Positions 36,001 through 45,000 of a stretch of DNA of 64,000 nucleotides are shown piece by piece. Each line of letters opens with the position of its first letter. Position 1 is the stretch's first letter. A program made the position numbers. The DNA comes from Escherichia coli O157:H7 (GTDB lineage Bacteria > Pseudomonadota > Gammaproteobacteria > Enterobacterales > Enterobacteriaceae), in assembly GCF_013167455.1 (NCBI RefSeq), contig NZ_CP038328.1. The stretch is one strand, 5' to 3'.

Positions 36001-39000
36001 GTGAAGCCATAGCGCTCACCCAGGCGAGCCAGAAACTCTACAGACGGTTTCTCGGTGATACCGACGGTTCGGTCGCCCTGTACATTAGAGTGGCCACGTA
36101 GTGGGCAGATACCCGCACCAGGCTTGCCAATGTTACCTTTCATCAACAGCAGATTGACCAGTTGCTGTACATTCTGGGTACCATGTTCGTGCTGAGTGAT
36201 CCCCATTCCGTAACAGATAATGGTTCGTTCGGCAGCGGCATATGCATCAGCCAGTTCGGCGATTTGTGTCTGACTTAGTCCAGAAATACGTTCGATATCT
36301 TTCCACTCGGAATTGAGCACGTCACGGCGTAGCTCGTCAAAGCCGACGGTATGCGTTTGAATAAATTCGTCATCCAGCAATGAGGGCCGACCTGCGGCGC
36401 TTGCAGCATCATCGCGCTCAATTAACAGGCGCATCATCCCCTTGAGCAACGCCATATCACCACCAATGCGCACGTTATAGTAGGCACTGGCCAACTGAGT
36501 CTCAGAGTTCGTCAGCATTTCAAACGGGTTTTGCGGTGCGGTAAATCGCTCCAGGCCACGTTCCTGTAGAGGATTGATGGCGATCATTTTCGCTCCCCGT
36601 TTCACTAAAGCGCGCAACGAAGTCAGCATGCGAGGGTGGTTTGTACCAGGGTTATGCCCAATGCAAATGACTAAATCGCACTTCTCAAAGTCTTCCAGCA
36701 ACACGGTCCCTTTACCTACACCGATACTCGCTGCCAAACCCACGCTTGTCGGTTCATGGCACATGTTGGAGCAGTCGGGAAAGTTATTGCTCCCGTATTC
36801 ACGGGCAAAAAGCTGATAAAGAAAGGCAGCTTCATTGGAAGTGCGGCCCGAAGTATAGAATTCAACCTGATTGGGATCACTATAGCTTTGAAGGCGTGCG
36901 CCAATTTCGTCGAAAGCTTGTTGCCAGCTTAATGGCTTGTAACAGTCGCTGACAGCATCATATTTCAAAGGCTGAGTGAGACGTCCCGCAGCCTCAAGCT
37001 CGTGATCTCCCCAGGTAAGTAATGATTGAACCGTATTCTGAGCAAAGAAAGAGGCATTTACCTGCTTATCCGTGACTTCCCAGGCGATTGCTTTTGCGCC
37101 GTTTTCACAAATGTCGAATGACGCACTGTGCTTAGGATCTGGCCATGCACAACCCGGACAGTCAAAGCCCTCTGGCTTATTCATGTCAAACATGGCAATA
37201 ACATCCTGGCGTATATCCATCTGCTTACGTACTGCATTCGCTACGGATTTAACAGCACCCCAACCACCGGCAGCACCCTGGTAGGATTCAATTTTTTTCT
37301 TCATCTACTTATCCTGTGTGGAAATGAATTATTAGGATTTGTAATAGCGATGATGCACAGTACATACAAAGGGATTATCGCCAACATGGATATATAAGAG
37401 TAGGGGACTACTCTCTTTCTATTTTTAATCTATTATCGTTAAACAATAGATTAAATACGATAAGGTAAGCATCATCTCTCATAGTGTTTAAATTAACATA
37501 TTTTTCAATATAAAAAATAAGACTCTGGCTTCAATTGTGCGCGGATTTTCTTACAAGTGTAGGATAATAGCCTTCACAAAATAATTATCCGCGCAATTTT
37601 CGTGAATGGAGCGCATAGACTAAGGTCAAAATCACAATTATTCATAGATAAAAGTGACACCAATGACTGACTGGACGGTTCCGGCTGAAACTTTGTTCCC
37701 TGTTTGTCCATAGGTTGCGCTTAAACCCAGAGGTACTTTGCTTTTATTTACTGTCCCCAGGGAGACATTTTCTCCCGTAGCCAGTATTTTTCCATTACGC
37801 ATCAGAGAGACACCCACTCCCGATGCTTTTGTTGCATCTGGTGCTGTGTTAGCAAACACTTGTCTAGCACTGTCAGTGGTAGTACCCGAAAGATAAAATG
37901 AGAGCTTTTGTTCGCTTGAGCAATATACGCCAAGGGGGATTTCTGCGCTTCCAGGAAAGTCCGGGAGATTCACGGTGACATTACGACTATCAACAGTGCA
38001 GCCGCCTGTTGGCATAACAACACTGTTATTTGAAATAATATTCCACGTAAAATTACGCGGATTTCCGCTTCCTAACGTGGCAATTTTATACATATGAATA
38101 CGGGCAATAACTTCCCCGGCTTTTATGACAACTCCACCGGCCGCCCCGACTGGGGTAATATAGAGTTTTAACGGTAATGGCATCGGTGTCTTATCACCAA
38201 TATCCAATACGTTGGTATTTGTCGTCAACGGGAAGGGGTAGGTCACATTATTCCAGTACAGCGATCCTTTATATGACTGTAGAGAGCCTGCGAAAGCTGA
38301 GCCTTGTACCAGGTTTATATGATCAGTGTCGTACCAGCCGCCGTAATCATTCCAGCAACTTATATGCTGAGACAAGTCTACAACCAGATTCTGGCCCGGC
38401 TGTATTACAGGGTCGAGATTAACATAAACAGAGGTTGTACCAGCTCCAATACTTGACCCGCCATCGACATTACAACTGAAGGCAAAAACTTTGCCTGCCA
38501 TTAATAGAAGATAAATACCGAACAGGACCTTTATACTGATTGTTTTACCCATGATATATCCTAAGGTTAAAAAATTGATTTAAAAAGAAGGCTAAGAAAA
38601 TCGAATCGACGTTATTGCCAGGTGTAGATCACATTGATTAGCGCCTCGATCGTTCCCTGGCTTGCGTTTCCATTCACCGTGATAGCTCTTGCCTTAAGTG
38701 GAAACTGTGCATTACGAGTGATCTCATCAACAATAACCGTTTTGCTATCGCCATTTTTTAACGTCGCATCCTGGTCATCCCTAAGCTCTATCTGAATATT
38801 TTCGGCAGTACCTTCATTTTTGTAATAACCCGTATTGTCAGTTGAACCTGTCACGATTGCCGTCACTGCACTTGTTTCAGCCGGACAATCGGTTAATGAC
38901 AAAGTAATATTGTGCCAGCCAGATGCAGAACCAGGTTGTTGCAGATTGCGCGTATAAAGATCCCCGAGATTAACGTTAGCTTCTTTGGTTTGAATAGTGC

Positions 39001-42000: not shown

Positions 42001-45000
42001 AGATCTGTACTCAGGCATGGGATGAGATCTGCGTTATTATCATCTGTAATAAAAGTAATATCCCGACTAGTCATAAATTCGTCGTTCAAATAAATGTCGA
42101 CCCGATATGTACCAGGTGGTGCCTCGCGTCCCTTAGTAAAGGCGGATAAATCGACAGATTCAGCAAGATCATTGCTTAAAAACCGTGGATTAAAATAATA
42201 CTCTGCGTCAACGGGAAATACCGCAGTTGCTAAGCTAAGGGCAATGGTAAGCCGTGCAAAGCGAGGCAGTAGTAACACCTGATGCATACGATATGCCTTA
42301 AATGCGGCACGAAAGGCTGTCATTATTAATTCCGATTGAGTTTATTATTAATTAGGTCACTGGCTTACTGCATGGTTGCCTTAATACGCGGAGTTAATGC
42401 GCCGTAATCATTGATCGTCTGAAAACTGATATCCCCGGTGGCAGCATGCGGGATATCCACCGACACTTCACCTTTTGGCGGCACCATGGTGTTTGGGAGA
42501 TTGCTATTTCCTGCTTTCATATTTGTTACGGTAATGAAGTAGGGCGTTGGATTAATAAGAGTGAGATTGCTACCGCTGCGACGAAACCGAAGCATTGCAG
42601 GCGCTTCTTCAGGTGCCATTGCCAGGTTCGTGGGCCGATAAAACATTTTTATGCGGCTAATAATTGCCAGCTGTAATGTATTCTCATTCTTCTGGTCTTT
42701 TTCCATAGCAGGAATAGCTTTAACATTAACCCAGAACAGGCTTTCACGGTCGCCGGGTAACTGATGATTAGTGGCGTTGATTATCCGCAGCGTATTCTCT
42801 TTTTTACCTTGCATGGAAAAAAGAGGTGGGGTAATGACAAACTGGGTGTCTTTTTGGTCACCAGCATTTTCTATCCATGACTGAATGAGATAGACACTGG
42901 CAGGATCATTATTCGTGACAGGCAATAAAACCTGTTTCTGGTTTGCCGGATAAATTACCCGCGTCGCACCCAGTGCGACAGCTGCGTTGGCAACGGTGCT
43001 ATGGCAAGCAAAGAGCAATAAAAGTAACACTGTCGCCATAAAGGAAATAGAGTAGGGGGTACGCGTAGTTTGCATCTGATGCATTCTCCATGTGTTAAGA
43101 GGATAAGCGGGAAAACCGTTACATCAGACAATCGGTAAATGTTGCTAATACATTGGCGAGTCACCGGGTTTCCAGACTTAATGCGTTTGTAATAAAGGTT
43201 GGTTCTCTTTTAATAGGAAAACCTTGCTAAAAAGTAAATATTTTTAATAACAGTAAGTTTAACTACTGTTGTTTATTGAACGTTTAGATATTATGTGATT
43301 TTTCATAGCGCTCCAAATACAAACCACTCATCATTAATAATGAGATTCACATTGGTGAATTGCTCGGGTGTGCGTAGCCATGCCACACACACCCTGTTTT
43401 AATTTCAGATGCCGTATAGCCACCTTAATATTGAATTATAGATATTGAACTTTGAAGGTCGCATCTGCGTTTGCAGTACCAGCTACGGACTGCCCGAGAG
43501 CAATATAACGAGCCTGGAATGGTAGTATATTCGTGCCATCAATCAAGTCGGTTTTAGCACTAAAAGTGGCCCCATCAAGTATTAATACCTCACCCGTACG
43601 GTCCAAAATTTGAATACCGACATTTTGGGCAGAGCCTGCCGCTGAACTCTGCAGCGCTAACGTATCGTCATTACTGGTGACAGTAGTACCCAGGAATGCA
43701 ACAGCTGCATTACTGGAAACATTGGTATCACAATCATTCAGCTTGATATTGAAGCCAACGGCGGAGCTGAGGTCACCCGCTTTAGCCAGGCGAGAAGAAC
43801 GAACCTGACCCAGCTCAACCGTTTGGTTCATTGATTCGGAATCAATCGCACAAGCGGCATTTACCACTTCACCTTTAAAATGAATAACACCGCCATTAAC
43901 AGTGGTCGTTACTGATTCATCACCCTCGGCTGCGCTTACCGCAGCAGACGACATCGCCAACACAGAAACGACAATCATACCAACATGTTTGAGTTTCATA
44001 ATTCTCCAAAATTTATATTTAAGTAGCTGAATAAAGAGAGTTAACAATTAAGTCATTCTGTTATTGCTTATAAAACAAGAATCATTCTTGATTGGTTGTT
44101 GCCCTGAGAATATAGTTTCCAGGGTTATTACATTTCACGAAGAACGATAATATCTTTAAATCACAAGGACACCTAATCACAACAAGTTTATTGCTGCACT
44201 TGTTGAAGAGAGTATTTGCAAAAACATTTTATGTCGCTAAATAACATGACGATTTCATTATGCATGTTATTTATAAACCGTGACTAAACAGAATATTATT
44301 GCGAACAAGGGAAGTGTCAGGAAAGGTCAAGGGCTACTAATGGTTTATATGGCTATAAATCATTAGCTATAGTTAATGTTTGCCTGGTGTAACTAACACC
44401 GAATTGCTCTAAACAGATAAGTGCAGGGTTTATTAAAGCTGACCGACAGACTTTCTTAACCTGGTAATATCTCTCTTGGGTGACTCTCCAAACATCCGCA
44501 AATATTCCCGTCGGAAATGGGATAAGCTTTCGTAACCGACAGCATAGGCTGCTGTGGTGACATCGTAATGTTCATTCAGCATCGTTCGCCTGACTTCATT
44601 GAGACGTAGCCATTTCTGATACCGGAGTGGACTCATTCCCGCAAGCTGCCTGAAGTGTTGATGGAAAGAGGGCGTGCTCATTTGCACGCGGTTTGCCAGC
44701 TTGAGTCTTCAACGCTGGGAAGATGCGGCAAACGGCAAATCGGCATACCAGCCAGCCTATATCCGTCATGCACAGGCCAATTATGAAAGAGGAGAAGCTT
44801 AAGTTCTGGAATCCTGAACGAATAACGACTACCGGAAAATCACTTCGTATCACTCAGATACGATTTAACATAATATACATTATGCGCACCAATATAAACC
44901 AAGGGAGAATCTAGTCGTTGGCGGTCATGATTGTCCTGCTCATTAACAACGACCAAACCCCATATCTTACTCTTACTTAATACCGTATTCTCGGCTTAAC

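Follow-up and report, generated by a model that had tools for sequence, protein, structure and literature searches.

The search for open reading frames (ORFs) in the window, the whole 64,000-nucleotide stretch of Escherichia coli O157:H7 DNA analyzed here, revealed six uninterrupted, co-directional ORFs on the minus strand at 37638-43999. Their products are a major pilin, a chaperone of the PapD type, an usher of 883 aa, two minor pilins (one FimF-like, one FimG-like), and a tip adhesin with two domains. Intergenic gaps were of 12-59 bp, except for one of about 350-360 bp between the major-subunit and chaperone genes. The six genes and their domain content (ORF scan, NCBIfam, and Pfam) are those that define an F9 (Fml/Yde) operon, and the signal peptide, Cys pair, and Fimbrial domain of classical chaperone-usher pilins were present; visual inspection and the mature N-terminus of a PDB structure served to place the signal-peptide cleavage sites. 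The chromosomal site, with ydeP downstream and a hipA remnant upstream, is that of F9 in other E. coli. The features of the locus were the following:

37638-38552, 38612-39115, 39128-39658, 39672-42323, 42365-43084, and 43436-44047, minus strand: the operon ORFs as delimited by the ORF scan
37638-38552, minus strand: ydeQ (fmlH), two-domain tip adhesin, 304 aa (ORF, Pfam, PDB identity)
38612-39115, minus strand: ydeR, FimG-like minor/adaptor pilin, 167 aa (NCBIfam FimG)
39128-39658, minus strand: ydeS, FimF-like minor/adaptor pilin, 176 aa (NCBIfam FimF)
39672-42323, minus strand: full-length outer-membrane usher, 883 aa (Pfam, RefSeq, CFT073 orthology)
42365-43075, minus strand: periplasmic chaperone of the PapD/FimC type, 236 aa when counted from the RefSeq start (Pfam, residues)
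43076-43435, minus strand: non-coding gap of 360 nt from fmlA to the chaperone gene, where type 1 has fimI (sequence)
43394-43366, minus strand: hairpin with a 13-bp stem, just 3' of fmlA (fold)
43436-43999, minus strand: fmlA (Sakai ECs2113), major pilin, FimA-like, 187 aa (NCBIfam, RefSeq, GGAG before the ATG)
44000-44249, minus strand: 5' untranslated leader, 250 nt (CFT073 5'-RACE start, PMC3966885, transferred by alignment)
44250-44286, minus strand: f9 promoter, with -35 TAGTCA (44286-44281), 18-bp spacer, -10 CATAAT (44262-44257), and transcription start G at 44250 (consensus scan and CFT073 match)
44238-44273, unstranded: candidate operator, perfect 11-bp inverted repeat TAAATAACATG-N14-CATGTTATTTA, enclosing the -10 hexamer and the transcription start (repeat search)
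44433-44702, minus strand: C-terminal HTH remnant of an AraC-family regulator (ECs2114/yneL-like), a neighbour outside the operon (ORF, weak AraC-family C-terminal matches)
40899-44177, unstranded: segment of 3,279 bp absent from K-12 MG1655 (blastn against the MG1655 locus)

The six proteins were 97.4-98.9% identical to the products of c1936-c1931 of the uropathogenic strain CFT073 (adhesin 98.0%, YdeR 98.2%, YdeS 98.9%, usher 97.4%, chaperone 97.9%, FmlA 98.4% to c1936) and equal to them in length. These CFT073 genes were cloned as pF9, which makes F9 fimbriae (plasmid table of PMC3966885). Neither frameshifts nor internal stops were found in the six ORFs. The F9 operons of CFT073 and of O157:H7 EDL933 and Sakai share the site, the six genes, their order and lengths, and the promoter geometry. 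The window also matches the Sakai F9 locus feature for feature, including the AraC-like ECs2114 remnant and an incomplete hipA without hipB (PMC7766294); it differs from CFT073 in one -35 base and upstream of about 44412, where the sequence varies between phylogroups and the remnant regulators are different. The ECs2114-like remnant lacks its N-terminus and is a pseudogene in RefSeq; in Sakai, ECs2114 is described as a cryptic CDS whose reporter activity was minimal (PMC7766294). The region 37400-44700 was 100% identical to O157:H7 strain 17B6-2, as was 1-37400 (same record), and 49600-56650 was 100% identical to O157:H7 FRIK1989.

The first-pass annotation had assigned these families to six co-directional genes of an F9 operon with a full-length 883-aa usher, and the ORFs, NCBIfam, Pfam, and the comparison with CFT073 agree with it on each point; the frameshifts in usher or chaperone that would have refuted it are absent. 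It erred at the 5' boundary, where it started the major subunit at a TTG at 44047 (203 aa). The NCBIfam FimA match (173.8 bits, cut-off 140) begins at residue 17 of that longer ORF, RefSeq uses an ATG on identical DNA, and GGAG precedes this ATG; thus, fmlA occupies 43436-43999, the boundary given before has to move 48 nt downstream, and the non-coding region ahead of the gene spans 44000-44432 (433 bp) instead of 44048-44432 (385 bp). FmlA has one Cys pair.

NCBIfam also placed YdeR in FimG (253.7 bits, cut-off 220) and YdeS in FimF (239 bits, cut-off 200), and the usher and the chaperone (FimC) scored just under their equivalog cut-offs. In the usher, Pfam PapC_N (1-146 of 146), Usher (1-549 of 549), and PapC_C (1-66 of 66) were matched end to end, so that the N-terminal, pore/plug, and C-terminal domains were all present, and RefSeq has the same 883-aa CDS on identical DNA. 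The chaperone has PapD_N and PapD_C and conserves the subunit-anchoring R8 and K112 of FimC. Its ORF is open to 43084 and the RefSeq start is at 43075, a choice that is immaterial and that sequence alone does not decide. An alignment of eight strains gave 45% variable columns for the chaperone CDS, an artefact of one strain with an internal chaperone deletion, and this value was disregarded.

The adhesin consists of a signal peptide (residues 1-24), a lectin domain, and a pilin domain (Pfam FimH_man-bind 27-171, E 1e-77, and Fimbrial 185-302). Residues 25-184 were identical at 160 of 160 positions to the crystallized FmlH of PDB 6AOW. The FmlH lectin domain has been crystallized with Gal(beta1-3)GalNAc, and its ligand contacts are F1, Y46, D53, K132, N140, and R142 (PMC5866590); all six are present here. 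FmlH binds terminal galactosides and not mannose; its ligands are Gal(beta1-3)GalNAc, GalNAc, Gal(beta1-3)GlcNAc, and the galactosylated xyloglucan of plants.

The promoter could be placed by comparison with CFT073, in which 5'-RACE mapped -35 TAGTCG, -10 CATAAT, an 18-bp spacer, and transcription from a G located 251 nt upstream of the ATG (PMC3966885). The geometry here is the same, with the start exactly 251 nt from the ATG, and the alignment showed a single hexamer difference, TAGTCA for TAGTCG. Transcription from this sigma-70 promoter would start at 44250 and run along the minus strand through the 250-nt leader. The first-pass annotation had expected H-NS silencing of an AT-rich upstream region; the GC content of 44000-44432 is 0.323, and H-NS binds and represses the near-identical CFT073 f9 promoter, as demonstrated by gel shift, by the de-repression seen in an hns mutant, and by complementation (PMC3966885). 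H-NS on the AT-rich promoter and leader would keep transcription low at 37°C, with a rise at 18-28°C. A thermosensor in the leader, which might account for the control of translation by temperature that has been reported, was considered and is not claimed, as the stability of the fold does not exceed that of shuffled sequences (z = -0.59).

The inverted repeat at 44238-44273 varies in 1 of 36 columns among eight strains. In the 64-kb window, inverted repeats that are perfect over 11 nt and have a spacer of 3-30 nt number only about eight distinct cases; when 43950-44750 was shuffled, one arose in 0.7% of the shuffles. On the sequence, it could be the operator of a dimeric repressor acting beside H-NS. 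The hairpin just 3' of fmlA lies in a region (43440-43340) that folds at -36.1 kcal/mol (z = -5.3; none of 200 shuffles was as stable). One of its 29 columns varies in eight diverse strains, and the substitution there replaces a U-G by a U-A pair. The hairpin would probably set a surplus of major-subunit message over that of the assembly genes, acting, as we infer, as an attenuator or mRNA stabilizer. That it yields a 3'UTR-derived small RNA like FimR2, with the inverted repeat as operator of a dimeric repressor, so that both are real regulators, seems unlikely. PMC3966885 does not mention the inverted repeat, and the F9 papers examined mention neither it nor the hairpin; both are apparently unpublished minor details.

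Other candidates in these non-coding regions were set aside. When 37300-44750 was compared with Rfam at a permissive E-value, no family was found in the leader or the gap, and the only two matches, to OxyS and AdoCbl-II, were sub-threshold and due to chance, both far under the gathering score. A decayed fimI in the gap was rejected, as the alignment with K-12 fimA-fimI-fimC gave no meaningful similarity. The gap contains a 15-codon ORF preceded by GGAG (43306-43259), conserved in CFT073 with one synonymous change; we do not claim it as a gene because an Arg-to-Leu double change is seen in the O145 and H14 strains, which leaves purifying selection unsupported. The search for an intrinsic terminator of the operon gave none that was convincing, the matches of the terminator scan being as many as shuffles would yield.

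The alignment with MG1655 confirmed that K-12 does not carry the same complete operon. It retains ydeQ, ydeR, ydeS, and a 408-codon C-terminal ydeT fragment of the usher gene, as the first-pass annotation had stated, and this orthologous distal half is 98.4% (ydeQ), 98.2% (ydeR), 99.4% (ydeS), and 98.5% (usher C-terminal 408 aa) identical to the operon described here. MG1655 is without the chaperone and major-subunit genes, usher codons 1-475, and the greater part of the leader. It keeps the promoter together with the leader's first 73 nt, which are now joined to usher codon 476. In K-12, a single 3,279-bp deletion removed the operon's 5' half, and no microhomology was found at the junction, where the breakpoints share no bases. 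Because it lacks 40899-44177, K-12 cannot assemble F9. This segment is present in 3,537 of the 5,426 complete E. coli genomes (about 65%), and about 35% are without most of the 5' half. Most E. coli thus have F9 intact and K-12 is the deleted exception, which makes an intact operon in this strain ordinary: the earlier description of the operon as complete rather than truncated holds, and completeness is no peculiarity of this strain.

Facts on expression come from the literature on CFT073, EDL933, and Sakai and were transferred here by sequence identity. In Sakai, a translational fusion was at least six-fold more active at 18°C, an fmlA (ECs2113) mutant adhered less to spinach, and purified F9 bound galactosylated xyloglucan (PMC7766294). 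F9 of O157:H7 was too low for detection by immunofluorescence, and an F9 mutant showed normal colonization of the bovine terminal rectum (Low 2006, as summarized in PMC3966885). Given this low level and the normal rectal colonization by the mutant, the in-host contribution of the operon would be modest or niche-specific.

Two other explanations were weighed. One holds that the locus encodes type 1 fimbriae in a second copy or a variant form, with an adhesin that binds mannose as FimH does, as RefSeq and NCBIfam label its subunits FimA, FimF, and FimG, and the Pfam lectin domain is named 'FimH, mannose binding'. It is indeed like type 1 (fimAICDFGH) in its gamma-1 chaperone-usher architecture, its gene order, its two-domain adhesin with a mature N-terminal Phe1, and the hairpin-bearing region directly 3' of the major-subunit gene, where K-12 annotates the sRNA fimR2. 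However, identity to the K-12 Fim proteins is only 46-67% (FimF 46%, FimH 49%, FimG 57%, FimD 59%, FimC 64%, FimA 67%), fimI is absent and the gap non-coding, no fimB or fimE recombinase genes flank the locus, and the site is ydeP-hipA, not fim. There is no invertible fimS: no repeat pair surrounds a segment of about 300 bp, and the sole inverted repeat of note within 43950-44750 encloses 14 bp. The positions of the FimH mannose pocket (N46, D47, D54, Q133, N135, D140, and F142) and tyrosine gate differ at 6 of 12 (I52Y, Q133K, N135A, Y137L, D140G, and F142P; MAFFT), and the lectin domain is that of FmlH, with a galactoside-binding pocket instead of one for mannose; F9 expression is, moreover, favoured at low temperature (PMC3966885). 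A second type 1 fimbria is, for practical purposes, refuted.

It is also improbable that the operon, intact in sequence, is cryptic in O157:H7, never usefully expressed and decaying as in phylogroup A. Such decay would fit the H-NS repression at 37°C and the very low expression in EDL933 (PMC3966885), the lack of a surviving cis regulator (the upstream AraC-type gene being a remnant), and the frequent disruption in the species, with IS insertions, frameshifts, and deletions among the sampled matches besides the genomes without most of the 5' half. Yet all six genes are lesion-free and hardly differ between phylogroups E and B2, seven of eight EHEC genomes, all five of O157:H7 among them, were scored as having F9 intact (PMC3966885), and the spinach adherence defect and the reporter activity at 18°C in Sakai speak for use. 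In addition, signature-tagged f9 mutants are cited as attenuated in calves.

An intact F9 (Fml/Yde) gamma-1 chaperone-usher operon, with the control, assembly, ligand, hairpin, and K-12 deletion set out here, is to our judgment a nearly certain joint explanation of the locus, and no sequence evidence against it was found. The six Sec-exported products would be assembled by the classical donor-strand-exchange pathway. The chaperone is predicted to cap each pilin in the periplasm through R8 and K112, and the usher would use its N-terminal, pore/plug, and C-terminal domains to take up the complexes of chaperone and subunit. By homology to type 1 and P pili, polymerization would begin with the adhesin, followed by the FimG-like and FimF-like adaptors and then the major-subunit rod. 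From the intact genes, we infer that this isolate may assemble a surface fimbria.

The operon, its truncation in K-12, the promoter, the H-NS and temperature control, the structure and ligands of the adhesin, and the distribution in E. coli are already published (Wurpel 2014; Holmes 2020; Kalas 2018), and as a discovery the locus matters little. For readers of this genome, the automated labels 'fimA', 'FimF', and 'FimG' at the locus are to be read as F9, not type 1. The isolate keeps a galactoside-binding adhesin that has been implicated in attachment to plants (xyloglucan), in low-temperature biofilm, and in calf colonization screens.

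Six uninterrupted ORFs on the minus strand, from 37638 to about 44000, make up the F9 (Fml/Yde) chaperone-usher fimbrial operon of the window.

Genes of the F9 operon
43999-43436, minus strand, FimA-like major pilin (fmlA), 187 aa
43075-42365, minus strand, PapD/FimC-type chaperone, 236 aa
42323-39672, minus strand, usher, 883 aa
39658-39128, minus strand, FimF-like pilin, 176 aa
39115-38612, minus strand, FimG-like pilin, 167 aa
38552-37638, minus strand, two-domain adhesin, 304 aa

The three small pilins exceeded the NCBIfam cut-offs for FimA, FimF, and FimG, and the usher and the chaperone scored slightly below the type 1 equivalog cut-offs. 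The Pfam search matched PapC_N, Usher, and PapC_C end to end in the usher, PapD_N and PapD_C in the chaperone, and the FimH_man-bind and Fimbrial domains in the adhesin. The R8/K112 pair, which anchors subunit C-termini in FimC, is kept in the F9 chaperone, and each pilin has a Cys pair. The first-pass annotation, which had described a six-gene F9 operon, was therefore correct in its gene set. Its start for the major subunit, TTG at 44047, should be replaced by the ATG at 43999, which has a GGAG upstream, coincides with the beginning of the FimA model match, and is the RefSeq start. The non-coding region upstream of fmlA is therefore 44000-44432 (433 bp, GC 0.323).

The proposed comparison with the uropathogenic strain CFT073 and K-12 MG1655 was done. 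The CFT073 operon (c1931-c1936, NC_004431.1 1772498-1778860) encodes six proteins with lengths equal to those in the window and identities of 98.4% (major pilin), 97.9% (chaperone), 97.4% (usher), 98.9% (FimF-like), 98.2% (FimG-like), and 98.0% (adhesin). At the K-12 locus we found only ydeQ, ydeR, ydeS, and part of ydeT, a 408-codon pseudogene "missing N-terminus", which agrees with the truncation that the first-pass annotation gave for MG1655. The K-12 deletion corresponds to 40899-44177 of the window (3,279 bp, blastn), and there is no microhomology at its junction. This deletion removes usher codons 1-475 together with the whole of the chaperone and major-subunit genes and most of the leader from K-12, where the F9 promoter and 73 nt at the start of the transcript are still present. 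A complete operon in K-12 and hidden frameshifts in the window were both excluded. The observation of the operon is confirmed and its interpretation supported.

Of the 5,426 complete E. coli genomes, 3,537 had at least 80% coverage of the segment missing from K-12 and about 1,600 lacked it; the whole 7.3-kb query reached at least 80% coverage in 3,570. These counts rest on BLAST coverage. This prevalence is consistent with published surveys, which reported an intact F9 for 60% of 42 genomes, every PCR-screened phylogroup B1 strain, the majority of phylogroup E strains, and seven of eight EHEC genomes, five O157:H7 among them, and a disrupted F9 for all of phylogroup A (PMC3966885). The genome counts and the surveys therefore indicate that an intact F9 operon is the normal state. 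The operon is complete, as had been claimed against the K-12 version, but this does not distinguish the strain, since most genomes have it intact.

In CFT073, 5'-RACE placed the transcription start at a G located 251 nt upstream of the ATG, preceded by TAGTCG and CATAAT with an 18-bp spacer (PMC3966885). The promoter region is nearly unchanged in alignment with CFT073 and K-12.

Elements of the F9 promoter
44286-44281, minus strand, -35 hexamer TAGTCA (CFT073 counterpart TAGTCG)
Between -35 and -10, minus strand, spacer of 18 bp
44262-44257, minus strand, -10 hexamer CATAAT (as in CFT073)
44250, minus strand, transcription start G, exactly 251 nt from A43999

In a CFT073 hns mutant, F9 was de-repressed at 37 °C and plasmid-borne hns restored the repression; a 251-bp CFT073 fragment was shifted by purified H-NS (PMC3966885). 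The H-NS silencing expected by the first-pass annotation has thus been demonstrated by experiment on the orthologous promoter; the same control would be expected in the window, where the upstream region is AT-rich and the promoter is conserved.

A perfect 11-bp inverted repeat, TAAATAACATG-N14-CATGTTATTTA (44238-44273), surrounds the -10 hexamer and the transcription start. Only about eight distinct inverted repeats of such quality occur in the 64-kb window, and shuffling the local 800 bp yielded one in 0.7% of cases. One of its 36 columns varied among eight strains; the local background is only 5-8% variable, so this conservation is no significant evidence. "Inverted repeat" and "palindrom" are absent from the text of the promoter-mapping paper (PMC3966885). 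Since the transcript includes just the downstream arm, the repeat would have to act as DNA if it has any role. The repeat may be a candidate operator, possibly a new one, and is a lead only.

The 360-nt gap between fmlA and the chaperone gene (43076-43435) is non-coding, whereas type 1 fimbriae have fimI in this place. A hairpin with a 13-bp stem (43394-43366, minus strand; -36.1 kcal/mol, z = -5.3) lies 42 nt past the fmlA stop and is kept in eight strains with a single change, U-G to U-A. The sRNA fimR2 is annotated at the analogous position after fimA in the K-12 type 1 operon; the hairpin has no sequence similarity to it. The hairpin, also a lead only, may be new, and it would leave more major-subunit message than assembly-gene message. 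The same gap contains a 15-codon ORF (MKNHIISKRSINNSS, 43259-43306, minus strand), 4 nt downstream of a GGAG. All eight compared strains have it, but two of them carry a non-synonymous double change in it, which makes a gene unlikely. Beyond the last gene, the ydeQ-ydeP intergenic region (333 bp) has two hairpins (37424-37455 and 37397-37414), one an AT-rich perfect 11-bp inverted repeat and one GAGTAG/CTACTC. On the operon strand, no U-run follows either of them, which leaves F9 with no obvious terminator.

The window belongs to the core chromosome, from fdnG to uxaB. Positions 1-37400 and the 7.3 kb around the operon match E. coli O157:H7 strain 17B6-2 at 100% identity, and 49600-56650 matches O157:H7 FRIK1989 equally well. 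A 6,705-bp Tn3-family transposon (49766-56470), which we take to be Tn5393-like, is inserted in an already frameshifted pseudogene of the ECSE_1600 autotransporter family. The element ends in terminal inverted repeats and is flanked by a 5-bp duplication of the target (TACGT, 49761-49765 and 56471-56475); inside it are a Tn3-family transposase, a recombinase, IS1133, and aph(3'')-Ib/aph(6)-Id (strAB, streptomycin resistance). It is absent from 17B6-2, and among the matches listed only FRIK1989 matched the insertion and both flanks in full; resistance genes have here been inserted into the chromosome of an O157:H7 lineage. The gene dosP (~14149-16538), encoding an oxygen-sensing c-di-GMP phosphodiesterase, is frameshifted according to the annotation of the identical O157:H7 record, and is frameshifted in CFT073 too. 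No toxin gene is annotated in the O157:H7 record beside yddM (HigA-family antitoxin, ~3213-3497); in CFT073, a RelE/ParE-family toxin gene adjoins it.

Upstream of the F9 promoter, hipA (~44973-46124) lacks its 5' end, hipB is absent, and the junction is near 46038. Relative to K-12, about 617 bp are deleted (hipA N-terminus, hipB, and promoter), and the locus is a toxin remnant without antitoxin. In 17B6-2, a 2.4-kb ISEc8 (IS66 family) lies between the AraC remnant and hipA, at window position 44949-44958; the window lacks it, so this is a strain-level IS polymorphism adjoining the F9 promoter region. The neighbours are the same as in Sakai, where F9 lies beside ECs2114, a cryptic AraC-like CDS, and a hipA that is incomplete and has no hipB next to it (PMC7766294).

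Over residues 25-184, the adhesin is identical at 160 of 160 positions to the lectin domain of FmlH (PDB 6AOW and related entries), and the contact residues F1, Y46, D53, K132, N140, and R142 are all present. The adhesin shares 49% identity with type 1 FimH and differs from it at six of 12 mannose-pocket or gate positions (MAFFT alignment). FmlH binds Gal(beta1-3)GalNAc and GalNAc (PMC5866590), and the ligand given for F9 is Gal(beta1-3)GlcNAc (PMC3966885) or, in O157:H7, galactosylated xyloglucan (PMC7766294). A Sakai fmlA mutant showed a small but significant decrease in adherence to spinach, and in Sakai the activity of an F9 reporter rose at least six-fold at 18 °C (PMC7766294).

The intact F9 operon is already known in detail. 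H-NS and temperature control, glycan specificity, and fimbriae from a cloned operon have been shown in the literature for orthologous F9, and the window carries the genes, with their domains and key residues, and the promoter in intact form. By analogy with type 1 and P pili, the fimbria would be assembled by donor-strand exchange at the usher, in the order adhesin, FimG-like pilin, FimF-like pilin, and major-subunit rod.
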